Positions 2,913 through 60,265 of a DNA stretch of 64,000 bases are shown one piece after another. The stretch lies in the IMG/VR virus record IMGVR_UViG_2974602649_000001, positions 1 to 64,000 of that record, one strand, 5' to 3'. The translations under genes and the position numbers were made by a program. This DNA is from a virus. Its lineage: Duplodnaviria; Caudoviricetes. The notes under the pieces are model-generated. The model searched no databases. It was not told the DNA's origin and was given only the letters and a program-made list of their open reading frames with translations. Every line of letters starts with the position of its first letter. Within the stretch, counting starts at the first letter, position 1.

Positions 2913-3911
2913 ATGTTTCAAGAGAGTTTGTCCTACCGTCCGTTTAAGTACGCCTTTGCTGTAGAAGCTGCTAAAAGGCAAATGATTGACCTTCATTGGG
3001 ACGTACACCAGCTAGATTTGACTGATGACGTTCGTCAGTACCACAGTCCCGGTGGAATGAGTACACCAAGCGTAAGTCATGATGTGAACAAAGAGATTTT
3101 GCGTAAATGCATTACCCTTTTCACCGAAATGGACAGGGAAGTTGCCGGTGGTTATGCTCGAATTCTCCCGTTTGTTAAGAACAACGAGATTCGTAACTGG
3201 ATCATCACAGCAATGTGTAAAGAGGTTACTCACCAACGAGCATACGCAACTGCTGCTGAGACGTTCGGCTTTGACAACGAGGCATGGGAAGGCTTCTACG
3301 TTTACAAAGAGATGACTGACAAGCTTGATGTAATGTCGGACATCATGTGGGACGAAGCCGATAGACCAGAGATGAAGTTCTGCATTGGTTTGTCTCAAGT
3401 ACTACTGGGTGAAGGTATTGGTCTGTTTGGTGCATTCAGTGCCTTGCTTAACTTCAAGCGTTGGGGTAAGATCATCGGATTCAACGATGTGAACCAATGG
3501 TCGCTGGTAGACGAGCAAGACCACGTAAGTACTAACATCCTGATTCTCAAGGAAGCTCGTAAATTCCTGAGTGAAGCTGAGAATATTGCCCTTGACAAGA
3601 TGATTCGTAAGATGATTCAGGCATACGTCGAGGCTGAGCACAAGCTGATTGACCTGCTGTACGTTGATGGTGATCAGGAAGGCTTGACAACCGCTGAGGC
3701 AAAGGATTATATTGACTACCTTGGTGAGCTTCGTGAGATGCAACTGGGTCTACGTAAGGCTCGTGATGTTCGTGAGAACCCGCTGATGTGGATGGAATAC
3801 ATGCTGACTGGTGCGAAGCATGACAACTTCTTTGAGAAGCGAGTCACTGATTACTCTCATGCTAAGCTTGAAGGTCCGGTGGATTACACCCGATTCCTAC
3901 ATATGGTATAA
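2913..3911 (+). CDS. nrdB: ribonucleotide reductase beta subunit
   Basis: Y-R-P-F-K-Y N-terminus, EVTHQRAY, EGIGLFGAF, DEQDH, NFFEKRVTDY. Confidence 0.97.
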   Translation: MFQESLSYRPFKYAFAVEAAKRQMIDLHWDVHQLDLTDDVRQYHSPGGMSTPSVSHDVNKEILRKCITLFTEMDREVAGGYARILPFVKNNEIRNWIITAMCKEVTHQRAYATAAETFGFDNEAWEGFYVYKEMTDKLDVMSDIMWDEADRPEMKFCIGLSQVLLGEGIGLFGAFSALLNFKRWGKIIGFNDVNQWSLVDEQDHVSTNILILKEARKFLSEAENIALDKMIRKMIQAYVEAEHKLIDLLYVDGDQEGLTTAEAKDYIDYLGELREMQLGLRKARDVRENPLMWMEYMLTGAKHDNFFEKRVTDYSHAKLEGPVDYTRFLHMV

Positions 3912-15421: not shown

Positions 15422-15437
15422 TGTTCCACATGGAACA
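15422..15437. promoter_or_regulatory. parS-like site 1
   Basis: TGTTCCACATGGAACA, one mismatch to the parS palindrome TGTTCCACGTGGAACA; intergenic. Confidence 0.7.
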
Positions 15438-20016: not shown

Positions 20017-20202
20017 GGAGAAACCATGCCGGACGATCTAGACATTGATCAAGAACACGAGTTATCCCTACTATCCTCACTGGTTCAAGTTGGCATAGTA
20101 ATTACTTCACTTCTCTGGTTATTCTCCCAAAGCCCCTCATTGTAGGGGCTTTTCTTTGTTTGTGATTTGGCAAAATCACTACTGAAATATTTACCTCACC
20201 CC

Positions 20203-20232
20203 TTGACAAACCAGTGAATCGATTGCTACACT
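20203..20232 (+). promoter_or_regulatory. sigma70 promoter facing the non-coding palindrome array
   Basis: TTGACA-18bp-TACACT with extended TG. Confidence 0.55.
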
Positions 20233-20514: not shown

Positions 20515-20530
20515 TGTTCCACATGGAACA
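20515..20530. promoter_or_regulatory. parS-like site 2
   Basis: TGTTCCACATGGAACA. Confidence 0.7.
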
Positions 20531-20734
20531 TAGTCCTATACAAGCCTTATACTCGTTGTGTGTGAAACACACCAATGCTTAGAACTTCGCGGCATTGCCG
20601 CAAATACCCCTCTCACAAAGACACCTTTTCCCTAACAATTCAGTTCACGGGCAAGGCTGGCATATGGTACATATGGCTAAGCCGCGCTATCTTGCGATAG
20701 TCAAGGAATATTTATTAAATCACTCTGACTACAG

Positions 20735-20750
20735 TGTTCCATGTGGAACA
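20735..20750. promoter_or_regulatory. parS-like site 3 (inverted)
   Basis: TGTTCCATGTGGAACA, reverse complement of sites 1 and 2. Confidence 0.7.
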
Positions 20751-20941
20751 ATTCATAATTAATCACCCATATCAATACTTCACGGGCAATAGTTACAATC
20801 AATTAGAGAAATCATGTGGCTCATGTCATACTATGCACTTAGTAGGAGAACGCCCCGCAACGGGGTTGCAATCCATGCCCTCACTCGCCTACTGATTACC
20901 TACCCATACCGATCACACCGCCCTCAGGCAGGGGATAAGCG

Positions 20942-20969
20942 GTGTCCTATAATCTGCATTATGTTAAAT
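20942..20969 (+). other. dif-like XerC/XerD recombination site
   Basis: GTGTCCTATAA-TCTGCA-TTATGTTAAAT: 11-6-11 geometry, XerD arm identical to the gammaproteobacterial dif arm, XerC arm ends in ATAA. Confidence 0.8.
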
Positions 20970-21290
20970 TGACGTATGCGTAAAGGAGGCAATCGCTTAG
21001 CAAGTCCCATGCCAATACACCTTCCTTTTCAAATAATAAATCGGTTGACTGGTCTCACGGATTTTGATATTCTAGAGAGGGCCGGGGTATGCCCAAAGTC
21101 CGGGGCATTAAACCCACATACGCAATCTCCTTTGGGATGGAGTACCCACATGCTCAATGACGAGGGTTGCAGGGATTTTGGATTTGTGGGAGAATGGTAT
21201 TGCTGGGAAATCGACTTTCCAAAATAGGGGGAATGGGGTTTTCAGGGGATTCACTTTTCTCTAAGTCTGTGATTGATAAATCACAAGCAA

Positions 21291-21358
21291 AGAAAAGCCC
21301 ACCGATTAAGGTGGGCACACTCAGTCAAGTGCTGGGCAGTCTCACCGATTAAGGTGAG
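21291..21358 (-). terminator. terminator for minus-strand operon, with duplicated hairpin
   Basis: AAAA-GCCCACC-GATTAA-GGTGGGC, then CTCACC-GATTAA-GGTGAG. Confidence 0.75.
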
Positions 21359-25683: not shown

Positions 25684-26021
25684 TCTCGGATTTCCTTATA
25701 GAATACTTTGATATGGTTGTCAACTGGAAACTTATGATGAAGCATTCGAGCCATACAATACCGAGTAACCTCAAATGGAACCCTTACGTCACACCATACT
25801 CGACAAAGGCATAGCCCAGCAATCGACATTGGGACACCTTTGATCCAATCGTCTCCCAGACGACCATCTTGACGCATGAACAATATCACATAATCGTCAC
25901 TCAGTACAACTTCACCTCTTCCCCACTTGATCAACGCATCTGGGTCGTCTGTAAACTGACGCATCCCCGCTTTCATTTCTTCAAGGTTATAGAATACCCT
26001 CAACTCACTTACACTTGCCAT
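25680..26021 (-). CDS. hypothetical protein
   Basis: AAGGAGG RBS. Confidence 0.65.
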   Translation of the reverse strand: MASVSELRVFYNLEEMKAGMRQFTDDPDALIKWGRGEVVLSDDYVILFMRQDGRLGDDWIKGVPMSIAGLCLCRVWCDVRVPFEVTRYCMARMLHHKFPVDNHIKVFYKEIRE

Positions 26022-26479
26022 TTTGCCTCCTTACAAGCCTGTCGAATACTGTCAATGTAGTCTGTGATCCAAGAGTACCCTGCATCAACAACCTTTGCGT
26101 TGTCCAGACTATACCCATAATAGTAGTAGTGTGTCAACGGTAAATCTGAAGCGATAAGTTGGGAGAGATATACACGATGGGTGAGCAGCTTTTGTCGGAT
26201 TGCAAGCTTGATCTTGCCTTCAAAATCGTCAATCTCAACTCGTTCAAGTTTCTTTCCCGCTGCCTTTGCTTCATATCCGTGTAGAAGTCGCAAATGTTCG
26301 TGTTTACATCCGGTGGCCAACCAGTACCAGTATCCCTCAACCGATTCAAAGCTTCCGTGATCCTTGAGTGTGAAGGGTGAAAGTGCGAAATTCGAGAGGA
26401 ATCGTCCCAAGGAGGTACGTGCTTTGCTATACACATTGATGTGTGTCACCCCATCGTCAATTGGTTGTAGGTCAATCAT
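26009..26479 (-). CDS. NADAR-family (T4 gp30.3-like) ADP-ribose hydrolase
   Basis: INVYSK..T.LGR.LSNFA.SPF...G.F.SVEGYWY...LRLLHGYEAK..GK. Confidence 0.75.
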   Translation of the reverse strand: MIDLQPIDDGVTHINVYSKARTSLGRFLSNFALSPFTLKDHGSFESVEGYWYWLATGCKHEHLRLLHGYEAKAAGKKLERVEIDDFEGKIKLAIRQKLLTHRVYLSQLIASDLPLTHYYYYGYSLDNAKVVDAGYSWITDYIDSIRQACKEAKWQV

Positions 26480-26842
26480 AGAGAGGAACCTCATTGATAT
26501 AGTAATCACAAGTTATGTCCATGTTATACCCGGGGACTCGACAAGTCTCCCAATCAGCATACTTGTACGCAATACAAGCTTGAAGTGCCCCTTTCAAGGA
26601 CTTGTGATGTGAAATATCCCATGAGTCATAGTTTTCAGCAGCTACAACCACGTATGCGAACTCACCATGGTGCTCCCGTGGGTGTCTACTAACCCTGAGC
26701 ATGGTCAGTTCTCATGCGAGCTTCATGAAATACTTCAAACTGCAAGCGAGCCAATTGCTCGTTGGTGAAATCAGGCAAGTGCTCAAGAGCTTTCTTGAAC
26801 TGGTTGAACACCTTACGATCTTGACCTTCTGGTTTATTCAAT

Positions 26843-27592
26843 TCAGTGATTGACATATTTACTCCTCATAAATTGTTCGTTGATTTCAATCAGGTTCATC
26901 TCGCCACTACGGGCAGTACCAGCATCAGTGTAAACCACATTACCAAGCTGTTCAAGTCGAGTACTTGCTGTGGGAGTATGACCGACAAGCACTCTATGAG
27001 CACCATGTACTTCACGAGTGTCATGACCCCTGTATTTACGCCTACCCCACTGAGCTTCACCATGGATATGCTCAAACTCTGACGGAGTTACGTTCTTGAA
27101 CATCTCCCAGTCATGATAGGGAACTTCCGCATGAACAATGCAAACCCTACCGAAGTCTGTCTCAAGTTCAATACCAAGAGGTAGACTCATAAACGCATCA
27201 ATGATCGACTGCATGAGTACTGGGTTTTGTTCAAATACATCCCAAGCCCAAAGCCCACCATGTTGTGCCAGAGTAGCCGCGTTCGTGCAAGTACGATAGT
27301 CGTATCCGTTTGCAAATGCATCAATGTGCATCCTTTCATGGTTGGCTTGAACAGAATGCACCCATGGCTCATATAACCAGTCAAGAACGTATTGACTCTG
27401 TGGCCCACGATCAACCCAGTCACCTCCCGAGAAAAGAAGGTCACCATTAGACGGACTGAATGCCCGCTCACGCAATTCAGTCTGCAATAAATCAAAGTGA
27501 CCATGCGTATCTGAAACGTAGAACAGGCGTCCCTCATATCCGCGTAGATCGTAATGGGCAATGTGATTCATTGACCCAATTAGTTTACGCAT
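26843..27592 (-). CDS. metallophosphoesterase (lambda NinI/PphA-like Ser/Thr phosphatase)
   Basis: DTHG, GDWVDRGP, ANHE, VHAE, GHTP motifs. Confidence 0.9.
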   Translation of the reverse strand: MRKLIGSMNHIAHYDLRGYEGRLFYVSDTHGHFDLLQTELRERAFSPSNGDLLFSGGDWVDRGPQSQYVLDWLYEPWVHSVQANHERMHIDAFANGYDYRTCTNAATLAQHGGLWAWDVFEQNPVLMQSIIDAFMSLPLGIELETDFGRVCIVHAEVPYHDWEMFKNVTPSEFEHIHGEAQWGRRKYRGHDTREVHGAHRVLVGHTPTASTRLEQLGNVVYTDAGTARSGEMNLIEINEQFMRSKYVNH

Positions 27593-28112
27593 ATTGATTA
27601 ATTATCTCCATAATCTGTTCCTCGGTGTGATTCTTATCGAATCCATCACCAAACCTCATCTTGAACCCTTTAGGCCAAGTGCCGATACAGTCAATGTCAA
27701 GCTTTGCTGCTGCAATCAAACCAGCAAGGTCTGTACCTGTTTGACCACCTGAAACAACGAGATTAACAGGGTGTTCCGCATGAACACATCGCAGTATCTC
27801 GTATACATGATCATTGACCATGTGCTGGTCCCAACCATTCTTTTCCCAAGTGTATATGCCATTCCCCGCAAAGTTGATTACCCTAGTGTCGTGTTCGATA
27901 AGCAGGTTGATGATCCCATCAACACAAGTCCGCCGCTTCCCATGCCAAGTGATTGGGGAAACTTTGAATATCTTACCCTTCGCAGACTTCTGTGTCAACT
28001 TTTCTCCAGCAGTGGAGTGATCAATGGCAAAAGCCACTGTCACCCCTTGAGACGCATTATGCGCGGTGCGAGGTCCGTACTGGGAATTGGCGTGCTGCTT
28101 CAGATAGATCAT
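27585..28112 (-). CDS. SLOG-superfamily (MoCo-carrier/DprA-like) protein
   Basis: RTAHN, INFAGN, VVSGGQTGTDLAGL...G..PKGF. Confidence 0.7.
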   Translation of the reverse strand: MIYLKQHANSQYGPRTAHNASQGVTVAFAIDHSTAGEKLTQKSAKGKIFKVSPITWHGKRRTCVDGIINLLIEHDTRVINFAGNGIYTWEKNGWDQHMVNDHVYEILRCVHAEHPVNLVVSGGQTGTDLAGLIAAAKLDIDCIGTWPKGFKMRFGDGFDKNHTEEQIMEIINQYA

Positions 28113-28536
28113 ATGCTTTCCTCACGATTGCGTATTGAATGGGTGCCATCTTGTCTTTCAGAGTTGGGTCTTTTACATCGTACCAATCAACAGTTCGAAG
28201 CCCAGCCTCTTCCCAATCATCTAGAGCGTCTTCCCATCGAGCAAGGAAGTAAATCTCACGCTGTTTCTTGGCCTTGAAGTCACCAAATTGTTTGTAGTCA
28301 AGAACTTCATCAAAGATCGCCGGACCTTCAATACTTGCAACAACACCAGCTTCCTCACGACACTCTTTCAAGGCGTTCTCTTCTGGAGTAAGACCTTCCT
28401 CAAGACCACCCTTTGGTAGAACAAGGAACGGACCCTTCAGGGAAGATACCAGTAGCACTTTGTCATTATAGATTACAGCAACACCAGTTGCGGTGCGCTT
28501 GTACTTCGAGCCGCGTTTTGCAATAGTTACATCCAT
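28057..28536 (-). CDS. Nudix hydrolase
   Basis: PKGGLEEGLTPEENALKECREEAGV Nudix box; AAGGAG RBS before ATG 28536. Confidence 0.9.
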   Translation of the reverse strand: MDVTIAKRGSKYKRTATGVAVIYNDKVLLVSSLKGPFLVLPKGGLEEGLTPEENALKECREEAGVVASIEGPAIFDEVLDYKQFGDFKAKKQREIYFLARWEDALDDWEEAGLRTVDWYDVKDPTLKDKMAPIQYAIVRKAYDLSEAARQFPVRTSHRA

Positions 28537-28546
28537 TTGTTTCTCC

Positions 28547-29104
28547 TTATTTACCGTGACGGTCACTGAAACCCTTTCCAATTTCCCATTCTTTTCGAGC
28601 ATCGATAGCATCTTGTAAGTTATCGAAATACCCTATCGTCTTGGATTTACCCTCATGCCTCCCACTGGCCAACCACTTTTCGTATCGCTTATACCACGTT
28701 ACTCCAACATGACCTGATTTATTGTTTTTGTACATTGATTTGTTGTGCATATTACCCGAATGACTTGTCTCTGTCAAATTACTCGGATCATTATTCAACC
28801 CATCTCCATCAGAGTGGTCCACTGTACCGTCTGGATATCTTCCATTGTAAATTGCCCAGATAATAACATGCTCTAACATTGTATAACGGATTCCCTTGTA
28901 CGAAACGGTTACACATCGGTAGAGTCCATCTGAATCTAATACCGTCCCTGCACGAGTACCGACATATCGCTGGAAACACTTCCACCCATGTTCTGTGTCA
29001 AAGTGACTCTGTGGTCTATTTAACCAGATTAATTCACTTTGCACAAGCTCTAAACACTCCTTTAGTATCTTAAATGGTAGGTATGAATTTGCCGTTTTTG
29101 ACAT
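28547..29104 (-). CDS. HNH homing endonuclease with C-terminal AP2-like domain
   Basis: H.IIWAIYNG..P...VDH.DG..LNN..SNL; NNKSGHVGVTW...W.A......IGYF. Confidence 0.9.
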   Translation of the reverse strand: MSKTANSYLPFKILKECLELVQSELIWLNRPQSHFDTEHGWKCFQRYVGTRAGTVLDSDGLYRCVTVSYKGIRYTMLEHVIIWAIYNGRYPDGTVDHSDGDGLNNDPSNLTETSHSGNMHNKSMYKNNKSGHVGVTWYKRYEKWLASGRHEGKSKTIGYFDNLQDAIDARKEWEIGKGFSDRHGK

Positions 29105-30311
29105 ATCCGTCCCTCACCAGCTTTCCTACGGGAAATTGGGGTAGAAGTGTACCCTTGTATCGTGCTTGGAACGCCACGGTCAAATACTTACCAACCAGTT
29201 CATTATTGTTCTCAAGGAACTGACGACGCTCGGACAGACTACCCATGACACAGTTGAATGTCAAGTCTGACATATCGTTTTTCAGTACAAAGATTCCATC
29301 ACCCTGCTTGTCAGCAATCACATCAAGAATCTCAAACTCAGCATCCTGCATTAGCTTGTATTTCCACAGACCAGAGGACCGCTTACCACTTTCGTACTCA
29401 CCATCTTTGGTGCGATACATGATACCCTCAAACCCACGGTCAATGCAATCCTTGAGTTGGGTATTCAGTTCTTCAATGCTGTCAGCGTACTTATACTGTA
29501 CAGCAACGACAAAGCCTTCCACCAACATCCGTTGTTCTAACTTACGCAGTTCCTCAAGACGCTCCTCGAAAGGCATATCGAACAGAACAATGTCGAACAC
29601 ATGATATTGAAGAGCGTCACGATACGAACTGATTGCGCAGCACTCTTCATAATCTGCCCAAGCTGATTTGTACTGAGTACTTTCTACACCGTGTTTGTTC
29701 AAAGCCTTACCTGCTTTCAGGTATGCCGCTTCAACTTTCTCTTCAGCATCCTCACGTTTCACAGCAGAGCTGATTTCCTGAAGAGTTGGCCCATGCACAT
29801 ACAGTTCACCGTCGAGAATATCACCAACTTCCATAATACTCAACAGTTCTTGCTCAATGTGTGGGACTCGGTATAGCTGACCGGTTCGGGAGAACAACGA
29901 TACGTATTTACCAATACCCGGTGCATGCAAGCACTTTGCGATACAGCGGAAGCCATCAAGCTTATCGGAAGTATAAACACCTTCCTCTACAGTCTTTTGC
30001 TTACCTGCTTTGGTGTGGTCTTTCGACAACATTGCCAAAACAGGAAGGTCATTCAGTTCCTCGAAAGTCTCACGGTAGTTCTTATCAAGCTGTTTCTTGA
30101 TCCGAGATTGAGCCTCAAATACGGCCTGCTCGTATGGTGTGCGACCTTGCTTACCAACTTTGATGTTGTCTTGCTTGTCATCAATGATTGTACCACCGTA
30201 CACACCGTAAGCGATGTTCAGAACACCTACACCGTCGATATCACGGGCTTTGATGGACCAGACTTTGTAATCACCACCTTTGTTCAAACCGTACAGAGTT
30301 TTCTCAAACAT
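29070..30311 (-). CDS. ATP-dependent DNA ligase
   Basis: KLDGFR, LDGELY, VFD, EGIM, KYK, PQFP motifs. Confidence 0.93.
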   Translation of the reverse strand: MFEKTLYGLNKGGDYKVWSIKARDIDGVGVLNIAYGVYGGTIIDDKQDNIKVGKQGRTPYEQAVFEAQSRIKKQLDKNYRETFEELNDLPVLAMLSKDHTKAGKQKTVEEGVYTSDKLDGFRCIAKCLHAPGIGKYVSLFSRTGQLYRVPHIEQELLSIMEVGDILDGELYVHGPTLQEISSAVKREDAEEKVEAAYLKAGKALNKHGVESTQYKSAWADYEECCAISSYRDALQYHVFDIVLFDMPFEERLEELRKLEQRMLVEGFVVAVQYKYADSIEELNTQLKDCIDRGFEGIMYRTKDGEYESGKRSSGLWKYKLMQDAEFEILDVIADKQGDGIFVLKNDMSDLTFNCVMGSLSERRQFLENNNELVGKYLTVAFQARYKGTLLPQFPVGKLVRDGYVKNGKFIPTI

Positions 30312-31402: not shown

Positions 31403-31861
31403 TTAGCCGATCAGGTGCTTGTATTGATTGTAGTCCAGTTTGGTTTGGAACTCAACCTTCTGAGACTGGAACTCAAGACCGCGATACTTGTGGTAAGTTG
31501 CTTTTACCTTAGTGACAATGCGGCAGTAACCTGCAAACAGGACCAGAATATCAGCTTCGCCATTGTCGTCATTGACGAACTCTTTGAACTCTGGAATATG
31601 ACCAAAGAACTCAATACCTGCTATGTTATGCAGAGCCATATCTGGTGCTTTGTTGTGCATGTGAATCATAGTGTTCACTTTGAACTTCTCACATCCTTGT
31701 TTACGGAATCGTGGGTTGCTGAAGTGTAGAAGTTTTCCCATTTTGTCATATACCGGCTCATAACCCATTGCACCTGCGAACCTCATCAGGGACAGAGTTT
31801 GAATTGCTTCAGTGTTGCTTACTTCAGGGAAGGTGCATGGGGATTCGTAAAATTTAGTCAT
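31403..31861 (-). CDS. hypothetical protein
   Basis: AAGGAG RBS; hairpin terminator at ~31373-31397. Confidence 0.7.
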   Translation of the reverse strand: MTKFYESPCTFPEVSNTEAIQTLSLMRFAGAMGYEPVYDKMGKLLHFSNPRFRKQGCEKFKVNTMIHMHNKAPDMALHNIAGIEFFGHIPEFKEFVNDDNGEADILVLFAGYCRIVTKVKATYHKYRGLEFQSQKVEFQTKLDYNQYKHLIG

Positions 31862-33754: not shown

Positions 33755-35026
33755 TTAGATAATGATATGTGGAATGAACCGTTCGTTCGCAATGCTCAAC
33801 ACTTCAGAGTCAAACTCACGGAAGCACAGGCTTGCAGTGTATTTACCCATCATCCAGCAACCCAGAATGAAGTTGTTACGACCTTGGACCTTGTAAGGTG
33901 CCCGATATTCTTGGAGAACCGAGTTCTCTTCGTCGTAATAACCACCAGTGTCACTGATGATTTCACCATCTTTCCAAATCTTGATGTTGTTCGACAGACG
34001 ACCAACTACTGGTTTCTCAACCAAGTGACTCATACCCAGTTCCGAACCATCTTCGACATCATCATACAGATAAGTTGGAATCAATGCAACATGACCGAAC
34101 TTCTCTTTGAAGCTAAAGCTGGTTTCCATCAAGTGAGTGCAAAGAGCTTGCATGCCCTTGTTGGCAAAGAACCAACGCCATGCTGGTTCAAACACATGCA
34201 CATGATCAATCCAGTGAGTCCACTTGTCGAGGATTCGAGGGAAGTTGGTTACCATCTCTTCCCAAGGACTCAGAATATACACTGCATCCAGCGGATTGTC
34301 ATCACCTTTCGCAAAGAAAGGAGAACCGTATTCCGAATCGTCAAAGTCCAACTCTTTGATGTCAAGGAACTGTACGCGGGACAGTGGGAAAGCTTCGTTG
34401 AAAGCTTGAGCCAGAGTCTCACAGGTTGCCATGTCTTCAATGTAAGCGGTATCACACACAACAGCCACGTTCTGGTAGTTGTTCTTGCGGATCTGCTCAA
34501 TGAAGATCGACCACCAGTTATTGTACTGGTCAGTACCCAGTTGCTGCGACAGTCGGTTCTGGATGTTTACCGATTCGAACAGCATCACCGGAGTGTCACC
34601 GTTGAACTCGTACACACCTTCCAACTCTTCAGTCTCAGGGTTGAAGCATGCATCGTATCGACCATATAGTGCTGGGTGTTTCTTGTGGAACGTTGCTTCT
34701 GCGTATCGGGTGAAGGCGCGACCATGTTCACGCATAAACTCACAGTCAAAGAATCGCATCAGTCGCTCTTTGTCGTGGAACGCATAAGACAGAGCGTATT
34801 CCATCATCTGGTAATAGTCTTCAAACTGCTGATTCAGATTGTAGGTTGTTTCGTCTCGCATGGTGTAGAACGGCATTGCATCTTTGTTTGCAACTGGGAA
34901 CGACAACAGGTCATGTACATCACCATTCAACTCTTCACCATCCCGATAGAAGGTGCTCAGGAATGGAAGCTCCTCACGTACAACTTGGTTGATGTTGAAG
35001 TTGATACTTTCTTTTACTACGTGCAT
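33755..35026 (-). CDS. glutathionylspermidine-synthase-like ATP-grasp ligase (YgiC/YjfC family)
   Basis: LYGRYD, EFNGDTP..LFES, PWE, EPAW...ANKG, KPVVGR..NI.I, C-terminal F.PH.I. Confidence 0.9.
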   Translation of the reverse strand: MHVVKESINFNINQVVREELPFLSTFYRDGEELNGDVHDLLSFPVANKDAMPFYTMRDETTYNLNQQFEDYYQMMEYALSYAFHDKERLMRFFDCEFMREHGRAFTRYAEATFHKKHPALYGRYDACFNPETEELEGVYEFNGDTPVMLFESVNIQNRLSQQLGTDQYNNWWSIFIEQIRKNNYQNVAVVCDTAYIEDMATCETLAQAFNEAFPLSRVQFLDIKELDFDDSEYGSPFFAKGDDNPLDAVYILSPWEEMVTNFPRILDKWTHWIDHVHVFEPAWRWFFANKGMQALCTHLMETSFSFKEKFGHVALIPTYLYDDVEDGSELGMSHLVEKPVVGRLSNNIKIWKDGEIISDTGGYYDEENSVLQEYRAPYKVQGRNNFILGCWMMGKYTASLCFREFDSEVLSIANERFIPHIII

Positions 35027-35194
35027 TCATTTACTCCTTAAAAGAGATGTAAGCTAACACAGGGATGATCAATGTCAATAATACAACAGAAATACACATG
35101 CAAATCCACAAGTCTGGTAGATTACCATTGTGTATGAACAGGGTATCATAGGTGTGAAGACTATTCATCATTCCCTCTTTGTTTGTATGTCGCC

Positions 35195-35223
35195 ATTATG
35201 CCCCTCTTTCGAAGGGCAGTCAA
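35195..35223 (-). promoter_or_regulatory. sigma70 promoter with a hairpin in the spacer
   Basis: minus strand TTGACT-GCCCTTCGAAAGAGGGG-CATAAT; second promoter TTGACA-16-TAGCTT at 35078-35051. Confidence 0.6.
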
Positions 35224-35302
35224 GCATTTATTTCACTTATCTCCAAGAATCAGAGCGGGTAACACAATAAGGATAATGATCCAGATACAAAACCAGAACA
35301 CA

Positions 35303-35872
35303 TCAACCTCCCGAGGAGTAGCCAGACGAACGAGCAGATCCACTACCAGCGAATGCACCAGAACTACGACTCGCACTGGTTGCCTTCCACGTTGGGGAAG
35401 ACTTAATGGTGGTAGCAGCACGACTGCGCACCGAGCCAGCATATGCACTCACACTTGCATTTTTCTTTCGACGATAGTCTGACTGGGAGTAGTAGGATCG
35501 TGGTGCTGGGGCATATCCACGGTTATAACCACCTGAGCTATTAAACATACTTGCAATCAAAGCACCTGCTGCCATGCCACCGAGCATTGGGAGGACGCTA
35601 TCAGAGAAGCTGGATTGACCAGTTTTTGGATCAACAGTCTCACGAACGATCACCATTTGTTTCTCACCGTTCTCATCAACAGTGTAGTACATGTCTTTGA
35701 TGGTTGGGTCTTTCGCTTGAGCTTCTTTCAGTGCTTGTTTCAGTTCAGCGTCATCCTTGTTCAGGACTTCCCGTGCGTGAGAGTCAAGATCTGCTTGAGT
35801 TGGCTGAGGTTCTTCACAGCCTACAAGAACGGAACCGAGAGTGACAGCTAGAGCGAGTTTTGCAAGTTTCAT
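35303..35872 (-). CDS. lipoprotein with Gly/Ser/Arg-rich tail (YgiB/YjfM, DUF1190-like)
   Basis: lipobox LVGC, PMLGGMAAGALI segment, low-complexity SRSSGAFAGSGSARSSGYSSGG end; upstream of YgiC-like gene. Confidence 0.7.
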   Translation of the reverse strand: MKLAKLALAVTLGSVLVGCEEPQPTQADLDSHAREVLNKDDAELKQALKEAQAKDPTIKDMYYTVDENGEKQMVIVRETVDPKTGQSSFSDSVLPMLGGMAAGALIASMFNSSGGYNRGYAPAPRSYYSQSDYRRKKNASVSAYAGSVRSRAATTIKSSPTWKATSASRSSGAFAGSGSARSSGYSSGG

Positions 35873-35904
35873 ATATTCTCCTATGTTTGTAGATGCCGGG
35901 GCTG

Positions 35905-37644
35905 TTAGCCCCGTTCCAGCTTGTGACGAATCTGACCAAGAGTGGACAGGTTTGCAAAGTTACCATCAAGGAAGCGAATGTGCAACAGGTTTTCTTCGCT
36001 TTCCTCAAACTCACGAGTTACATCGTTCAGTAGCACGAGTTCACCAGTCTCTTTGTCTTGAACCACAGCCAGCAGACCTTTAGCAGATTTCTTCTTACTG
36101 TCAGTCTTTGGATCCTTGAAGATCGAAATCTTCTCACCATTGACTTCAGTGTAAGTCGCCTTAACGGTAAACCCAAATACATCACGAGTCAAGCACTGGT
36201 AAGTGTACGAACCAATACCGAACACACAGCAACTGGAAGCAAGGCCATTCTGCTTCAAACCTTCAAGGATGTCAAGGCATCGCTGAGGAGTAATGCTGTC
36301 ACCGTAGATCAAACCAATTTGATCGATATACTGGCGATAACCTTTCTCAGTTTCAGTGTAGCCAAAGATATCTTGAAGCAAACGAGCAGCACCAAGAACC
36401 TCTTCAGCACTTACTTCCTCACCCAGCACGTAACGTTCTGGCCAACCTTCGCCACCAAAACCCTCATACTCTACTTCATACCGATAAAACTTTTCACCTT
36501 GCTTAACAACAGCACTTTCTTCTGCGTTAGCCATGTTATACAGGTCGTTGTAACCTTCCGGGTATACGAAGTATCCATTGACAACTCGCTCTGGAACTCC
36601 AGTGTCAGGACGCAATACCAAACGACCCGGGGTAATACCATTCGACTCACGACGAAGGATAACGTCTTTCATGTACGGCAGACCACGAGACAACACACCC
36701 CAGAAGTCATAACTGTCAGCAACATACGACAGAATACCTTTCGGGAACTTCAGCATCAGTTCGTAGAGGAACATCATTTCAGCGATGAGGCGTTGGTCTT
36801 CACCTTCTACCCACATCTCACTGTAAATTTTTTGCTGCTCATCATTGACAAAGAAATAGTCACCTTCAGTCAATGCTCGTTCAATACGCAGGATGTTCGA
36901 AGTGGCTACGGCGTGTTCAGTTGCAGGAACAGAAGCTGCTACAAACTCACCAGCACGATAATAATCCTGAGCGTACATGATCGAACCAAGGCTGTCAGTA
37001 CCCAAGAACGCTGCAATGTGACCGAACTCACTACGGGCACTATCTTCAGGACCGGACATACCACGGCATGCGAAGCTGTGACCTTGGAACAGAACAGTGT
37101 TCAGATCAACGCCTGTTTGCTCTGCGTAATCCAGCAACATGCGCTTGTACTCACACGCAATAGTTGCAACAGTACTTGGTTTCCACATCAGGTTGGACAG
37201 AGTAGTTTCAAGGAAGTTCACCAGCCAGAATGCGTGAGGAACAGTGTTCTCAATCGTCATCACTGGAATGTTGAAGCCCATCTTGGTGCCTTCATCCACA
37301 GTCTTGATTTTCAGCGGAAGATAACCGAGATCGTGCAACGCTGCCAGACGATGAGTTGGAACAGCATCCATACCCAGATAGTTATCGCACAGCATCTTGA
37401 AGCGAGCAATTGCGATACCCTTGTCCATGTCAAAGAACTTCTGCCAGTTCTCCACAACCTCTTGCAGAGCACCTTCTTGACCGATCACAACGATCTTACC
37501 GTCATAATACTTGGTTGCTTGGCGACGATAGATCCGGTCGTTTCGTGGAGTGTTGTTGGCGTTAACCAGAGTAGTACCATCGCTGTACATTTCGGCGTGA
37601 GCCAGCTTATAACCGTCGCTATTGAATGGGGCAAATAGGTTCAT
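35905..37644 (-). CDS. nicotinamide phosphoribosyltransferase-like protein (Namat of NARP1)
   Basis: DGYK..H..MY, GTDS, SVPATEH, DSYD, RPD.G, IYGDSIT, GIGSY, KDPKTD..KKSAKG. Confidence 0.92.
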   Translation of the reverse strand: MNLFAPFNSDGYKLAHAEMYSDGTTLVNANNTPRNDRIYRRQATKYYDGKIVVIGQEGALQEVVENWQKFFDMDKGIAIARFKMLCDNYLGMDAVPTHRLAALHDLGYLPLKIKTVDEGTKMGFNIPVMTIENTVPHAFWLVNFLETTLSNLMWKPSTVATIACEYKRMLLDYAEQTGVDLNTVLFQGHSFACRGMSGPEDSARSEFGHIAAFLGTDSLGSIMYAQDYYRAGEFVAASVPATEHAVATSNILRIERALTEGDYFFVNDEQQKIYSEMWVEGEDQRLIAEMMFLYELMLKFPKGILSYVADSYDFWGVLSRGLPYMKDVILRRESNGITPGRLVLRPDTGVPERVVNGYFVYPEGYNDLYNMANAEESAVVKQGEKFYRYEVEYEGFGGEGWPERYVLGEEVSAEEVLGAARLLQDIFGYTETEKGYRQYIDQIGLIYGDSITPQRCLDILEGLKQNGLASSCCVFGIGSYTYQCLTRDVFGFTVKATYTEVNGEKISIFKDPKTDSKKKSAKGLLAVVQDKETGELVLLNDVTREFEESEENLLHIRFLDGNFANLSTLGQIRHKLERG

Positions 37645-37862
37645 TCTTCAGTCTCCATTTTGTTTTCGGTAAAGTTACCAGATTTGTTAGCCTTGATATT
37701 CTGAAGGATTTCGATCACTTCGTCAATATCTTCGTAGCAAATTGCTACGGTATCTTTCTGCTTACCCTCATGAAACTCTAGCACTTCAATGTCATGATCC
37801 CAACTTACCTCGACTTTCCATTCTTTGAGCTTAACTCGACCTTCAGTTTTGCTAAAATCCAT
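37641..37862 (-). CDS. hypothetical protein
   Basis: GAGGAG RBS. Confidence 0.65.
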   Translation of the reverse strand: MDFSKTEGRVKLKEWKVEVSWDHDIEVLEFHEGKQKDTVAICYEDIDEVIEILQNIKANKSGNFTENKMETEE

Positions 37863-37872
37863 TATTCTCTCC

Positions 37873-38736
37873 TCAGAATACTTCGATTACTTTGACGTTA
37901 CTTGCGTCTTTATTGCTTTTGTAACTGTTGGTAGTGTATACATTGTTGAATTCGTTTGCAACAACATCTACACCAAAAGTGAACAAACCGTGTGTTACTG
38001 CCAGATCAATTCGCTGCGCAAAGCCTTTAGCTTCACGAACGGCATCGCAAATTGCTTCGTGCGCCTTCAGGAATGTACGACCACCATCACAGATGTCATC
38101 CAGAACAAGGAATTTCTCCATGTTGTGATTGACTTTACTTACAATTTCATATCCAGTGATTTCAATCGACTTCATGTCACGCTTCTTATCACAGACCAGA
38201 ACGCCAGCAGCACCCACTTCAGAGAAAAGCTTGTTAGCCTTCTTTACAGCACCCATGTCTGGAGCAACAATATACACATCACTCCAATCATTGTAAATCT
38301 CTTTGAATACTTTATATTGCTCAGTCTCATAGAGGTTGTTATACACACCGCTCAGAACGCCGCTGTGAGCGTCTAGAATGCACACAGTATCAAAGCCCAT
38401 AGCGTTGATCATCTGCGCAGCAAATCGCGCTGAGAACGCCTCTCCGGGGCTGCAAGGACGATCCTGACGTGCATATGGTGCGTAAGGCATCATCAGATTG
38501 TAATAACCCCGGGTGAAGTGACGTTTTAGAGCATCCATAGTCAGTCCAAGTGCGACGATCATATCGTTCATGGAGTAACCTGTCAACTCTTTATCACCAA
38601 ACTGGATTGCTACAGTGATGTAGCGTTCACGAATTTCGGTTGTGGTCTGCTGAATGTCCACATTCATACTACCGTCTTTGAACTGCTTGAGCTTTACTTC
38701 AATCCAAGAACCGTTGTCAATCTTGTACTTGATCAT
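37873..38736 (-). CDS. ribose-phosphate pyrophosphokinase-like protein (Adps of NARP1)
   Basis: PY.PYARQDR, DAHS, APDMGA, LDDICDGGRTF, VTHGLF. Confidence 0.92.
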   Translation of the reverse strand: MIKYKIDNGSWIEVKLKQFKDGSMNVDIQQTTTEIRERYITVAIQFGDKELTGYSMNDMIVALGLTMDALKRHFTRGYYNLMMPYAPYARQDRPCSPGEAFSARFAAQMINAMGFDTVCILDAHSGVLSGVYNNLYETEQYKVFKEIYNDWSDVYIVAPDMGAVKKANKLFSEVGAAGVLVCDKKRDMKSIEITGYEIVSKVNHNMEKFLVLDDICDGGRTFLKAHEAICDAVREAKGFAQRIDLAVTHGLFTFGVDVVANEFNNVYTTNSYKSNKDASNVKVIEVF

Positions 38737-38918
38737 ACCAGTTCAATCTCCTCATAAATAACAGCCCACCAATCAGAACCATCCAGATACTCTGCACGGA
38801 AGTAATTACCATCGGACGATTCGAATACCTTGGTGATTCGAACAACATCACCAATTTCGAACTCGTGACCACGCTGTTGCTTGATTACACGCACTTCCTG
38901 ACCAATTTCAAAACTCAT
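38733..38918 (-). CDS. small SH3/KOW-like protein
   Basis: FEIGQEVRV...HEFEIGDVVRI. Confidence 0.65.
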   Translation of the reverse strand: MSFEIGQEVRVIKQQRGHEFEIGDVVRITKVFESSDGNYFRAEYLDGSDWWAVIYEEIELV

Positions 38919-38919
38919 T

Positions 38920-39798
38920 TTAGAACTCCTTATACGGGTTACCGACACAGATTACGTTAGGGATTTTCAGATCATACCAGAGGCGAAGTACCTGAGGACG
39001 ATCATCAATGGCTGCAACGATATCATAGTCTTCAGTAAGTTGCCAGTAAATTTCTTCTTTGACTACGTTGTCTTTTCGGAAATCACCAGCTTTGCGCATG
39101 TAAAGGTCTTCAATGTACTTCTCACCAACATGACGATGTAGCCAAGTCAGGGTTTCCGTGTAGCATTCATCACTACGCCCACTAACGAACACAACACACT
39201 TACCCTCTTCCCACATGGAGCGAACCATGTCAATTACAAACTGACGGGGCTTATCGTTACCAACAAGAGCCCAATCGAAAGGGCCACGATCCGACATTTC
39301 GGCAACGGTTCCGTCAATGTCAACAATGACCGTTTCAGGCTTTGTAACATCAGGTTTGTGAGTAGGTCGTTGAATGTATTCATTCCACTTCTCCCATTGG
39401 TTGTAGATAACACTCTGACCAACACCATTGTATCGGTGAGTATCCCGCTTCCAAGCCTCTTCCAAGGTGATTGGGAGTGCATGAATACTAACCTCATACC
39501 CAAGGTCTGTCAACTGGGTAATCAGCTTCTGTCGAACGCTTGGGTTCAAGTTGGTATCACTGATGATAACATTCTCTTCCTTGCCCCACGCTTCCATGAT
39601 CATCTGACCTTGGATTTCTGTAACTTTCTTTTCGTTATCATTTGTGAACTTATAATTACGCCAGTCGCTACCCGGGGAAACCACATTGAATCGAATCCAG
39701 TCACGGTTGATTTCAACGTAGCCGTACTTTTCAACCAGTTCTGCTGCATAAGTTGACTTCCCGCTGGTGGAAATCCCAACTGTCAATACTGCGTGCAT
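38920..39798 (-). CDS. pseT: polynucleotide 5'-kinase/3'-phosphatase (T4 PseT-like)
   Basis: P-loop GISTSGKST, NRD.IR, DTNLN, HAD motif DIDGT, SGR, DDRPQV. Confidence 0.93.
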   Translation of the reverse strand: MHAVLTVGISTSGKSTYAAELVEKYGYVEINRDWIRFNVVSPGSDWRNYKFTNDNEKKVTEIQGQMIMEAWGKEENVIISDTNLNPSVRQKLITQLTDLGYEVSIHALPITLEEAWKRDTHRYNGVGQSVIYNQWEKWNEYIQRPTHKPDVTKPETVIVDIDGTVAEMSDRGPFDWALVGNDKPRQFVIDMVRSMWEEGKCVVFVSGRSDECYTETLTWLHRHVGEKYIEDLYMRKAGDFRKDNVVKEEIYWQLTEDYDIVAAIDDRPQVLRLWYDLKIPNVICVGNPYKEF

Positions 39799-39810
39799 AT
39801 TTCTCTCCTG

Positions 39811-40008
39811 TCAACCAATAGTTGTATTTGTTAATTCATAGTCATGATAAGATTGTCGCCACCCGACTCGCATCGAATTCAATAACCATGCCGCTGTTTC
39901 ACCTCGTTCTGGTTTGAATGTCATCCAGTCAAAACGATTAACCCATTCTGAATTTTCGTAATCTTTTGTCCTGAAATAGACAATAAGTGTTTTCATACCA
40001 TCATCCAC
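39811..40008 (-). CDS. hypothetical protein
   Basis: short ORF between rnl and pnk. Confidence 0.5.
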   Translation of the reverse strand: MDDGMKTLIVYFRTKDYENSEWVNRFDWMTFKPERGETAAWLLNSMRVGWRQSYHDYELTNTTIG

Positions 40009-41135
40009 TTACGAAGCATGTCCATCTTGAAGGTAGTTTTCATACCATGGAACACTTGCACCGGATCCTTGTTGTCGCGTCGTGCCATGAAGTACACGGA
40101 TGCTTTTTGTTTGTCAATACCCGCGTGCTTAATTGCTGCTGCAAACGCCTTTGGTGTGGTCGCTTGGTTAAGACGCGGATAAGTTACAGCAATAATGTTC
40201 AACATGTCAAGCAGAGAATCTACATACGGTTGAATAATTGGTCGGTCTTCTGGGAAGTACGACAGGTATTCGTCATGCTCACCACTCAGAACAAGTTCCA
40301 TGATCCGCTTAGGATTCAAACCCTCACCACGAATATGGTGAACAGCAACATATGCTGGAGACTTGATCTTCGCAATTGGCACAGCATTCTGATAGACAAT
40401 GAAGCCTTCATCAAGGTTTTTCAGTTCTTTTGCCGCTTGCAGTGCTTCATCCGCAGAACCAAGAGCATAACGCTTTGGATGTTTCACAATTCCATACAGA
40501 ATGCAATCTGGGCTTCGCAGCCAATCCCGGCATTCTTCACTGTAATTACCGCTCACATTATCACGAGCAGCAAGGAAGTGAAGGTTGTAACCATGATAAT
40601 GACGAACAACACGGTTCTCAACGCAAGTCAATTCAAAAAGATACGTTGTATCTCGGAACAAATATGCGTTATTCATCAGATACTGGAACCCGTCATCATC
40701 ATGCACTTTGAGTGCGTTAAACACGAGTTCCTTGAAAGTAATACCATGACCCATGCACTCGCTTTCAGCAAACGCTGTGCCTCGTGTGGCGACTTCCCAG
40801 CGGCCTTTATGGAAGTAGATCTTGATCAGCGAACCATCAACCTTTTCAAAGATGCTGGCATTTTCCCAGTCAATCTCTGGCATGACATTCAGTGCTTCAC
40901 CGTAGTTGAAGAATCGGTCGAATGGTCGAGCCACGACAGTCAGGTCATTGTCAATGATAAGACCACGGCATTCTTGCACGATTGGGTGAGTCTTCGGACT
41001 GTCAATCTGGCTGTAGTTCAATACGATCAGACCTTCATCTTCGTAAATCTTCGCCTTGATACCAAGTTCAAGATGTAGAGAAGCAAGGCCGTCAGTGATG
41101 GATGGTGCGTTCTTCAGGAATTCAATAACTTTCAT
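39993..41135 (-). CDS. RNA ligase 1 (T4 Rnl1-like)
   Basis: ECRGLI, RFFNYGE, KVDGSL, FEL...NRVV..Y, EGFIV, KIKS..Y. Confidence 0.92.
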   Translation of the reverse strand: MKVIEFLKNAPSITDGLASLHLELGIKAKIYEDEGLIVLNYSQIDSPKTHPIVQECRGLIIDNDLTVVARPFDRFFNYGEALNVMPEIDWENASIFEKVDGSLIKIYFHKGRWEVATRGTAFAESECMGHGITFKELVFNALKVHDDDGFQYLMNNAYLFRDTTYLFELTCVENRVVRHYHGYNLHFLAARDNVSGNYSEECRDWLRSPDCILYGIVKHPKRYALGSADEALQAAKELKNLDEGFIVYQNAVPIAKIKSPAYVAVHHIRGEGLNPKRIMELVLSGEHDEYLSYFPEDRPIIQPYVDSLLDMLNIIAVTYPRLNQATTPKAFAAAIKHAGIDKQKASVYFMARRDNKDPVQVFHGMKTTFKMDMLRKWMMV

Positions 41136-53191: not shown

Positions 53192-53647
53192 ATGAGTCAG
53201 AACCTGATTCGCACGCTAATCAATGCCCGAATGAATGCGGCTAACGCTGCTGGGCAAATCCTCACCAACCCGATCTACATTAACCACGATAACGAAGATC
53301 CTCTGAATCCAGAAGAGATTGGGTATAACCCATATCTGGTAACAAAGCTTCTTCCATCTGATACATACACTGATGCACTTGGTGGTGACCTTATCACAAG
53401 GACAGGTGTGTATCATATCAAGGTTAAAGTACCCTCCGCGTCTAATGCAGACCTATCGGGTGAAATCATTGATAACTTGTTTTCTTTGTTCCCAGTGGAC
53501 ACAGTTCTCAGTGAAAAAGATTCAACAGGAAAGATCACTTTCTCTGTGCAACTCATTTCCCCACTTCGACAGTATGGCGGTAAGCGTATTGACAACTGGT
53601 GGGTAGTCCCCTGTTCCTTTGAGTACAGGTCCGATACAATTAAATAA
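53192..53647 (+). CDS. tail terminator protein (probable)
   Basis: position before tail tube; G.Y.I.V..P and W..P.SF.YR motifs. Confidence 0.7.
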   Translation: MSQNLIRTLINARMNAANAAGQILTNPIYINHDNEDPLNPEEIGYNPYLVTKLLPSDTYTDALGGDLITRTGVYHIKVKVPSASNADLSGEIIDNLFSLFPVDTVLSEKDSTGKITFSVQLISPLRQYGGKRIDNWWVVPCSFEYRSDTIK

Positions 53648-53660
53648 GAGGATATAACAT

Positions 53661-54311
53661 ATGTCGTTCCAATTGCCAAACGGCTCTACTTTCGACTTCG
53701 CTGCCACCTACGGCACTGCTGTCACAGTAACTGCAATCTCTAACGCTTCGACTGCTGTTGCTACTGCTACTGGTCACTCTCTGGTGGAAGGTGACATTGT
53801 TGCCCTTACTTCGGGTTGGGTTCGACTGACTGGTCGTGCATTCCGTGTAGGTGCTGTAACTTCTGACACTTTCGAACTGGAAGGTGTTGATACCACTTCC
53901 ACTCAACGTTACCCAGTTGGTACTTCCGCTGGTTCGGCTTCCAAAGTTCTGACTTGGGTTAACATCCCACAGATTACTGAAGTAGCTTCGGCTGGTGGTG
54001 AGCAGCAGTTCTATCAGTTCGGTTTCCTTGAGGAAGACGAAGATCGTCAGATCCCAACTACCAAGTCCCCTTCGACTCTGACACTGACTGTTGCGGATGA
54101 CCCATCCCAACCATTCGTTCCAGTTGTTGAAGCCGCTGACGAACTGAAAGAGCAACGCATTCAGCGTCTGAACTTGGTTAACGGTGACATCATCCTGTAC
54201 AACTCCATTGCTTCGATCACGAACACCCCTTCGCTGACTCGTAACCAGTTGATGGTTCGTACAATCACTCTGGCTCAACAAGGTCGAGTAACCCGATACA
54301 AAGGCGCCTAA
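53661..54311 (+). CDS. major tail tube protein
   Basis: LPNGST, SNA..AVAT, SGW..L, GGEQQF..F.FLE. Confidence 0.9.
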   Translation: MSFQLPNGSTFDFAATYGTAVTVTAISNASTAVATATGHSLVEGDIVALTSGWVRLTGRAFRVGAVTSDTFELEGVDTTSTQRYPVGTSAGSASKVLTWVNIPQITEVASAGGEQQFYQFGFLEEDEDRQIPTTKSPSTLTLTVADDPSQPFVPVVEAADELKEQRIQRLNLVNGDIILYNSIASITNTPSLTRNQLMVRTITLAQQGRVTRYKGA

Positions 54312-54325
54312 GGCGTAACCCTTAT

Positions 54326-54350
54326 GCCCTACCACTCGGTGGGGCTTTTT
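54326..54350 (+). terminator. intrinsic terminator
   Basis: GCCCTACC-ACTC-GGTGGGGC-TTTTT. Confidence 0.8.
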
Positions 54351-54372
54351 CATTTCTATAGGAGATAAAATT

Positions 54373-54774
54373 ATGGCTAAGAGTTTTAAGATTCAACTTA
54401 ACCCAACTTTCCAATCGGCAGTTGAAATCCCTCGTGTTGGTGGTGACCCTATGCGAGTAACATTCACCTTTAAAGCTTTCGACCGACTGGCTATGGCTCG
54501 AATCTTCGACAAGTGGAAAGAGCAAGGTGAAGAAATGCTCAAGCAGATGCGTGAAGACACTGAGAATGATAATCCATGGTCTATGGAGAAACTTACCACC
54601 AAGGAGATTGAATTGCAAGCCAGTCAACTGAAAGACGTTGTTGATGGTTGGGGATTCAGCGATGAGTTCAATGATGAAAATATTGAGGCATTGGTCGGTA
54701 CTGCTGTCAGTGTAACAGATGCGATCATGGAACAATACCATGAAGCTTATGCACGAGCACGCAAGGGAAACTAA
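54373..54774 (+). CDS. tail assembly chaperone (gpG-like)
   Basis: NPTF...V.IP..GG, W.F..EF..EN; ends on slippery G GGA AAC. Confidence 0.88.
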   Translation: MAKSFKIQLNPTFQSAVEIPRVGGDPMRVTFTFKAFDRLAMARIFDKWKEQGEEMLKQMREDTENDNPWSMEKLTTKEIELQASQLKDVVDGWGFSDEFNDENIEALVGTAVSVTDAIMEQYHEAYARARKGN

Positions 54775-55103
54775 TAGGCGCCGCTCACAAGTTGTATGTG
54801 AGAGAAACATCGGTTCACCAAGCAGGCATGTTCGGTCTTACACTTGAGGAACTTCCACAGGAAGACTACCTCATTTGGGATTGTAACTGGCCTGCTTTCG
54901 ATGTATTCAGCAACATGGCCACACAGTGGCGTGTTGGATTTAACGGTGCCATTGGTCTTGATTACAACGCAATCCCCTTCACGGCAAAGTGTCTAGGATA
55001 CAAAAACAAACAAGTTAAAGCAATGTTCCCTGACCTACAAGTGATGGAGAACGAAGCACTCATCACTATGGGGGAGAATCAGAAAAATGCCGACAATCGC
55101 TGA
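54765..55103 (+). CDS. tail chaperone -1 frameshift extension (gpGT-like)
   Basis: G GGA AAC at 54765-54771; -1 frame open to 55103 with TQWR.G..G..GLDY motif. Confidence 0.85.
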   Translation, partial: GKLIGAAHKLYVRETSVHQAGMFGLTLEELPQEDYLIWDCNWPAFDVFSNMATQWRVGFNGAIGLDYNAIPFTAKCLGYKNKQVKAMFPDLQVMENEALITMGENQKNADNR

Positions 55104-59061: not shown

Positions 59062-59163
59062 CTTGACAAATTGGAATTCTACATAGTAGAATTATTTCTA
59101 TATGGGGAGGGTTTGTTTGGTGACAACTTCACTAAGCACCTCCCCTTTTTATTTGGAGGAGAT

Positions 59164-59511
59164 ATGGCAACAAAGACATTTACATGGCGTGTTGAACGAA
59201 ACCTTACCCCAACCATTGACTATCGGACAACCAAAACTCAGTTCGGTGATGGTTATGAGCAAGTTAGTTCTGACGGTATCAACACAAAGAACGAATCGTG
59301 GGCAGTGCGAGTTACAGCAAAGACTGAAAAAGAAGCTGGGGAAATCATGGACTTCTTTGACTCACTTGGTGGTGTGCATTCTTTCCTTTGGAAGCCACCT
59401 CTTGGTAAGACAGCTCTTTATCGTTGTGATAATCCTACACCAACCCCGCAAGGTGGTGGAGTGTATGTAATTACTGGCACTTTCGTCAAGTCCTATAACA
59501 ATCCAGAATGA
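59164..59511 (+). CDS. minor tail protein M (distal tail)
   Basis: FGDGYEQ...GIN, F.W.PP; GGAGGA RBS. Confidence 0.9.
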   Translation: MATKTFTWRVERNLTPTIDYRTTKTQFGDGYEQVSSDGINTKNESWAVRVTAKTEKEAGEIMDFFDSLGGVHSFLWKPPLGKTALYRCDNPTPTPQGGGVYVITGTFVKSYNNPE

Positions 59512-59520
59512 GGTAATCTA

Positions 59521-60255: not shown

Positions 60256-60265
60256 GGAGAATAAC

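Follow-up and report, generated by a model that had tools for sequence, protein, structure and literature searches.

The 28-mer with dif-like sequence carried by the Pseudomonas phage phiPMW is, on sequence grounds, a genuine candidate core site for the host recombinases XerC and XerD that appears to be kept by selection. We suggest, with a rough probability of 0.45, that host XerCD would recombine two phage copies of this site and so circularise, join or resolve phage genomes, and would not integrate them. Sites of this class are known; what is new here is the carrier, the probable location in a terminal repeat, the variable private spacers and the partnership with parS.

The DNA analyzed (hereafter the window) comprises the initial 64 kb of the genome of Pseudomonas putida phage phiPMW (PMC5587285), whose record has 103,218 bp, a GC content of 45.1% and six tRNAs; positions in the window are those of the record. 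A promoter at positions 3684–3713 is identical to one listed in the paper on this phage (Magill et al. 2017, PMC5587285), which describes phiPMW as lytic and grown on P. putida PpG1 and contains no mention of dif, Xer or parS. The genes for the head and for packaging resemble those of FelixO1, and a lambda-like tail module of the siphovirus type at 53192–61652 encodes a terminator, the major tail protein, a 1324-aa tape measure protein, minor tail proteins and a gpI/K-like protein. No match to the Phage_sheath_1 domain was found in a Pfam search of the phiPMW genome. Given the lambda-like tail genes and the missing sheath match, the label of siphovirus given to this phage from the sequence alone is reasonable; the phiPMW particles are, however, called myovirus-like in the original description (PMC5587285).

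The dif-like site and its gene-free surroundings

The site lies at positions 20942–20969 on the plus strand, exactly where the sequence-only reading had placed it, and reads GTGTCCTATAA-TCTGCA-TTATGTTAAAT, a single-copy 28-mer with an 11-6-11 layout. Its XerD arm (20959–20969) agrees with chromosomal dif at 11 of 11 positions and is the sole exact copy in the entire 103,218-bp genome. The XerC-type arm (20942–20952), with 6 of 11 bases identical to E. coli dif, is the poorest of the clade described below and retains C5 and the inner ATAA. Between the arms lies the 6-bp spacer TCTGCA (20953–20958), which is private to phiPMW and non-host. A search of the 64-kb window for ATAA-N6-TTATGTTAAAT with at most one mismatch gave one match, and none was obtained in 100 shuffles; the exact XerD arm is expected by chance about 6e-4 times per 1.2-kb region. 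There are no tRNAs near the site, Rfam yielded sub-threshold matches only in the 17–23 kb region of phiPMW, and no DNA match to the site region was found among the other phages of the INPHARED collection, phiPMW itself being excluded from it. A folded attP like that of CTX is not indicated, the single-strand DNA fold of 20840–20975 being no better than those of shuffled sequences (z = -1.14).

The site is situated in a gene-free gap of 1.15 kb where two gene blocks converge. The gap is limited on the left by the terminator of the plus-strand gene block (20129–20152, plus strand) and on the right by that of the minus-strand block (21297–21316, minus strand), and the facing terminators make a 28-nt inverted repeat (20146–20173 and 21273–21300, 89% complementary) that brackets the whole zone. 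Directly after the plus-strand terminator there is a strong sigma-70-type promoter, TTGACA-18-TACACT (20203–20232, plus strand), which points toward the parS-like sequences and the dif-like site; the aligned position in the relative vB_PpS_SYP holds a perfect TTGACA-17-TATAAT. This promoter suggests a non-coding transcript, or a function activated by transcription, over parS and the dif-like site.

Three identical parS-like 16-mers, all intergenic and all differing by one central mismatch from the Pseudomonas parS TGTTCCACGTGGAACA (PMC4368675), were found in phiPMW. The proximal palindrome, TGTTCCATGTGGAACA, is at 20735–20750 on the XerC side of the dif-like site; 191 bases separate 20750 from 20942, in agreement with the distance of 190 bp given earlier from the sequence alone. 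The second, TGTTCCACATGGAACA, is at 20515–20530, and the third, at 15422–15437, lies 5.5 kb off, again on the XerC side. Perfect host parS sequences are present in SYP, G001 and G003, and a parS with one mismatch in L181; they occupy the same relative place, about 165–340 bp before the XerD arm. The offsets of parS from the dif-like site are -224, -444 and -5537 in phiPMW, -252 and -5958 in G001, and -165 to -7526 in SYP, so that all parS (three in phiPMW, five in SYP) are on the XerC side. No parS accompanies the dif-like site in M1, L179, G013 and G012. A role of the three parS-like sites as repressor operators of the phage was set aside, as the perfect host parS in relatives favours host ParB.

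Two hairpins complete the phiPMW zone, CCCCG-CAA-CGGGG at 20853–20865 and CCCT-CAGGC-AGGG at 20921–20933, the latter immediately upstream of the XerC arm. Hairpins of the gene-free zone are retained in relatives with different stems, for example GTCTGTGCAATGCAGAC in G001. Separately, a Fur-box-like palindrome, TGAATGAnAATCATTCA, is found 3–4 nt past the XerD arm in SYP (L004), G001 (L029), L177, L178, L199 and L201, with the exact Fur core AATGATAATCATT in L177; it is absent from phiPMW after the XerD arm. The gene-free zone of SYP also contains many AATCATT/AATGATT repeats.

The minus-strand block beyond the gene-free zone was noted for its genes at 26009–28536 and 33755–41135. They include those for a metallophosphatase (26843–27592) and a cpYpsA/SLOG protein (27585–28112); further on, the block encodes an ATP-dependent DNA ligase (29070–30311), a glutathionylspermidine-synthase-like protein, Nampt, PRPP synthetase, polynucleotide kinase and RNA ligase.

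Conservation of the arms and variation of the spacer

The closest cultured relatives of phiPMW by terminase are the Pseudomonas phages vB_PpS_SYP (SYP, 70% identity) and vB_PsaM_M1 (M1, 65%). In both, gene-free DNA holds the exact XerD arm and, 6 bp away, an arm of the XerC type. Further relatives were located in IMG/VR via terminase and a gene of the SLOG family that lies 6.6 kb away, and the site was found in seven of them: G001, L177, G013 (L178), L179, L181, G010 (L184) and G012 (L183). The ten-genome clade set used below consists of these seven, phiPMW, SYP and M1, and a 12-phage set additionally includes the Rheinheimera phage Barba5S and the IMG/VR phage G005.

Conservation of the arm in related phages, on which the first proposal of an Xer site had been made to depend, was found throughout the clade: the arm is kept in all ten genomes, eight having it exactly and two with a single deviating base, whereas the flanking DNA cannot be aligned. 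Over the 12-phage set the XerD arm was counted as exact in 11. The mean information content in the ten genomes reaches 1.91 bits per position in the XerD arm, compared with 1.31 in the XerC arm, 0.96 in the spacer and about 0.5 in the 30-nt flanks. The non-coding DNA around the site is almost unalignable between relatives, save for the site itself and a few other blocks. The genes on either side are collinear in phiPMW, G001 and SYP, which indicates that the dif-like sites are orthologous.

The site also occurs outside the clade, in more distant FelixO1-type phages from another genus. In Barba5S (NC_048187, L195) it is found at 31651–31678 as ATAACTCATAA-TCTATA-TTATGTTAAAT, in a gene-free gap of 1.27 kb, and in G005 (L196), an uncultured 73-kb FelixO1-type phage from IMG/VR, it has the spacer GACGTA and again lies in gene-free DNA. 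The 11-mer of the XerD arm thus recurs across lineages with terminase identities of 32–70%. Among the relatives checked, no site was seen in G002, VCM, XD2, Boevelstad, UAVern, SUSP2 and an Edwardsiella phage, and in G003 the site is rearranged. Its absence from G002 and the distant relatives and its rearrangement in G003 show that it is not universally required. Judging from these comparisons, the dif-like site is under selection and is dispensable in the wider group.

The chromosomal dif of P. aeruginosa PAO1 is GATTCGCATAA-TGTATA-TTATGTTAAAT and that of P. putida KT2440, a strain in which both xerC and xerD are present, is GGTGCTCATAA-TGCATA-TTATGTTAAAT (Carnoy & Roten 2009, PMC2731167, Table S2). 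The phage site resembles them in the 11-6-11 layout, the identical XerD arm, and C5 and ATAA in the XerC arm; it is unlike them in spacer positions 2–5 and in not being located at the replication terminus. The phiPMW spacer TCTGCA shares only its first and last bases with TGCATA (KT2440) and TGTATA (PAO1), and the spacer identity with the host that characterizes a chromosomal dif was not found in these two comparisons, the host strain of phiPMW being PpG1. The central hexamer, proposed from the sequence alone to be non-host, differs from both of these spacers. The accompanying statement that TGTATA is the usual chromosomal spacer is right for most pseudomonads but not for P. putida KT2440.

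The XerC arms of the relatives, which include TGTACGCATAA, GTTACGTGTAA, TGTGCGTGTAA and ATTACGTATAA and are of the CGCATAA, CGTGTAA or CGTATAA types, have 9–11 of 11 bases identical to assorted Pseudomonas chromosomal dif arms; one of them, GTTACGTGTAA, is identical to the XerC arm of the P. fluorescens PfO-1 dif (PMC2731167, Table S2). The spacers of the clade are TCTGCA, CGTACA, TAGGTA (in three genomes), TGGTCA, CTGTTA, CGAGTA, TCAGTA and TGAGTA. The 12 phages were counted as having nine different spacers, none of which is TGTATA or TGCATA, and the spacer length is 6 bp in all 12 tabulated sites.

Strand exchange by Xer recombinases requires matching spacers. Spacers that vary from phage to phage and are never those of the host fit an exchange between phage sites and do not fit integration. 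The earlier suggestion that the site favours phage-by-phage recombination over integration is in part supported by this pattern.

A probable short terminal repeat

The GenBank record of SYP (107,173 bp, linear) has an exact duplication of 351 bp at both ends, and this duplication includes the dif-like site and a perfect parS. Its left edge falls between GGCTA and AGCC, and its right edge, at the end of the record, between GGGGCTATT and AAGCC. Both edges lie within sequences that are conserved in relatives: the left one inside the block GGCTAAGC(C/A), which precedes the XerD arm by about 285 bp, the right one inside the block AAGTCCGGGGCGTTAAACCC, which follows that arm at about 125–165 bp. The right-edge block is nearly invariant in G001, L177, L178, L179 and L181. 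A random assembly artefact would fall into this 1.1-kb zone with a chance of about 1%, and the chance of its hitting conserved motifs there would be smaller still.

The corresponding blocks of phiPMW are GGCTAAGCC (20675–20683, plus strand), conserved in G001, L177, L178 and L179, which is the predicted left edge of a repeat and would, by analogy to SYP, be cut between GGCTA and AGCC, and CGGGGCATTAAACCC (21101–21115, plus strand), the predicted right edge, with the cut between GGGGCATT and AAACCC by the same analogy. From these positions we infer a terminal repeat of about 430 bp in phiPMW (20680–21109) that would contain the proximal parS, the two hairpins and the dif-like site. The conserved non-coding cassette of about 350–430 bp in phiPMW-type phages, in which a host-type parS usually lies about 165–250 bp from the site toward the XerC side, is most likely a short direct terminal repeat of linear virion DNA. 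Repeats of this kind have a precedent in the FelixO1-type Felixounavirus Pr103Blw, which is reported to package its DNA with short terminal repeats of 581 bp (PMC8303462).

The sequence-only reading had already considered that the site might lie in a terminal repeat and be present in two direct copies. The duplication in SYP and the conserved edges speak for this, whereas the phiPMW record holds one copy of the site, with neither a second dif-like copy nor end repeats. The contig of the relative G009 (97 kb) stops where the zone would start and does not include it, which is weakly consistent with a terminal repeat. The flag "direct terminal repeat" attached to G001 was rejected, as it reflects merely a 127-bp k-mer overlap from assembly. 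A long repeat of 13 kb as in T5, proposed separately from the sequence alone, was set aside, since the SYP record indicates a short repeat.

Possible roles of the site

If the cassette is a terminal repeat, each infecting genome would carry two direct copies of the site, and each concatemer junction would carry one. Host XerCD would synapse two phage copies and exchange strands. Acting on the two direct copies at the ends, it would excise a circular genome with one copy of the repeat; between molecules, the same reaction would join phage genomes head to tail, and in concatemers or dimers it would resolve genome units, in both cases with no need for homologous recombination. Because spacers have to match, any spacer would serve for recombination of a phage site with its own copy, and a private non-host spacer would avert fusion of the lytic genome with the host dif. 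It can be speculated that bridging by ParB at the neighbouring parS might aid the pairing of ends. It should be noted that T7 and other known phages whose genomes end in short terminal repeats are not known to require circularisation.

The enzymes would be those of the host. A Pfam search of the phiPMW genome gave no match to tyrosine recombinases (Phage_integrase) or to ParB_N, so proteins binding the dif-like site and parS would have to be host proteins. The same search gave no match to an XerD activator of the XafT/DUF3653 type. KOPS (GGGNAGGG) occur 2–5 times per genome in the four genomes considered, 3 being directed toward the site versus 9 away from it, and no KOPS polarity converging on the dif-like site is seen in these genomes. 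The genes that flank the site are all without an assigned function.

Use of host XerCD is textbook knowledge for plasmids and small integrating phages. The sites cer of ColE1 and psi of pSC101 are, like the phage site, Xer cores on non-chromosomal replicons with a degenerate XerC arm and a non-dif spacer, and they are recombined self-by-self by host enzymes, as we propose for phiPMW. Both depend on an accessory sequence of about 180 bp to which PepA binds together with ArgR or ArcA; in phiPMW and those relatives that have parS, a host-type parS takes the side where cer and psi have this sequence, and the carrier is a tailed phage of the lytic type. Another likeness is to loxP and Cre of phage P1, as Cre/lox can cyclise terminally redundant P1 DNA and also resolves dimers. 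A site in terminal copies can in this way circularise an injected linear genome, and P1 also pairs its site with parS. P1, however, has its own recombinase and its own ParAB, whereas phiPMW would use host enzymes, and its redundancy is produced by headful packaging, in contrast to the short exact terminal repeat proposed for phiPMW. One may go further and imagine that the lineage builds its genome ends from host maintenance sites, the Xer site with its private spacer being a "lox" without a phage recombinase that circularises or concatenates the genome, and ParB, recruited to parS, pairing the two ends as the accessory factor of synapsis that PepA with ArgR or ArcA is for cer and psi; we regard this extension as doubtful. 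In the literature searched, no paper places a dif site in the terminal repeat of a lytic tailed phage.

The absence of KOPS polarity and of a match to an XerD activator means that catalysis may never be triggered, and this speaks for an explanation in which the site serves for docking or as a decoy, XerC and XerD, as well as ParB at parS, being merely bound without strand exchange. Such binding might hold the two genome ends together or shield them, position the phage DNA within the cell, make it resemble the chromosome or, at high copy, titrate proteins that the host uses for segregation. It would by itself preserve both arms and their 6-bp spacing, and it agrees with the clustering of host-type parS on one side of the site (three in phiPMW, five in SYP). 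A pure sink for XerD, however, needs no Pseudomonas-like XerC arm, a single site per genome makes a poor titrator, and the apparent placement in direct repeats suits a reaction between two sites. We consider docking without exchange unlikely.

Somewhat less probable still is a plasmid-like carrier state, in which the phage genome would persist as a circular episome, the dif-like site resolving dimers and parS ensuring partition via the host ParAB. Low-copy replicons classically combine a centromere-like sequence with a site for multimer resolution, the non-chromosomal spacer is typical for Xer sites of plasmids, and parS is found on the XerC side, the one that holds the accessory sequences in cer and psi (PMC2731167 for cer). 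Against this, both phiPMW and SYP are described as lytic and forming clear plaques (PMC5587285, PMC10580904), neither an integrase-family recombinase nor ParB_N was matched in Pfam, and a terminase scan of 185,579 species-representative bacterial genomes revealed no relative. In addition, parS, which partition would use, does not accompany the dif-like site of four clade members (M1, L179, G013 and G012).

All phages known to use Xer integrate at dif (PMC7062461, PMC12715192, PMC9966536); those met in the literature searched comprise filamentous phages, gokushoviruses and tailless double jelly-roll prophages. An attachment site of this IMEX type, that is, XerC-catalysed integration at the host dif as in the phages CTX, VGJ and TLC and in gokushoviruses, would share with phiPMW the dif-like site and the host XerC and XerD, and the outer spacer bases (T...A) agree with the host. 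Yet spacer positions 2–5 of phiPMW are unlike TGCATA or TGTATA and no spacer in the clade equals that of the host; the genomes are of the lytic type and roughly 100 kb in size; and the terminase scan (185,579 genomes, one per species, for close relatives) revealed no prophage relatives. The IMEX phages are small filamentous phages, microviruses or tailless temperate integrators, whereas phiPMW is a tailed phage of 103 kb, and we regard integration at dif as very improbable. Equally improbable is an explanation unrelated to Xer, with the block serving as the target of a phage protein, for instance terminase or an initiator of replication, and the likeness to dif arising by chance: although the site has further conserved blocks and the probable cut sites for packaging beside it, and the neighbouring genes are mostly without known function, an exact universal XerD arm in lineages of 32–70% terminase identity, the correct spacing, the Pseudomonas-like XerC arms and the low chance expectation given above (6e-4 per 1.2-kb region) argue against coincidence.

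Recombination between phage copies by host XerCD, if true, would explain circularisation or concatemers in some phages with short terminal repeats and without a recombinase of their own. The genes xerC, xerD and perhaps parB would then be host-dependency factors, which bears on phage therapy and on resistance screens, and, for phage contigs from metagenomes, the site would provide a simple sequence marker of genome ends. As phiPMW and SYP are cultured and their Pseudomonas hosts are tractable, the idea can be tested directly.

A wider scan of IMG/VR for CATAA-N6-TTATGTTAAAT gave at least 120 viral contigs (L037–L156). The matches listed are mostly on contigs of 4–15 kb, and many of them combine a CGCATAA XerC arm with a spacer other than the host's (TCGTTA, TACGTA, TAGGTA and others). 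In the large contigs L055, L113, L056 and L054 the sites are within ORFs and are probably due to chance. The 110-kb contig L040 has the exact Pseudomonas XerC arm at a site that adjoins a RepC replication gene, and this neighbour suggests that L040 is plasmid-like.
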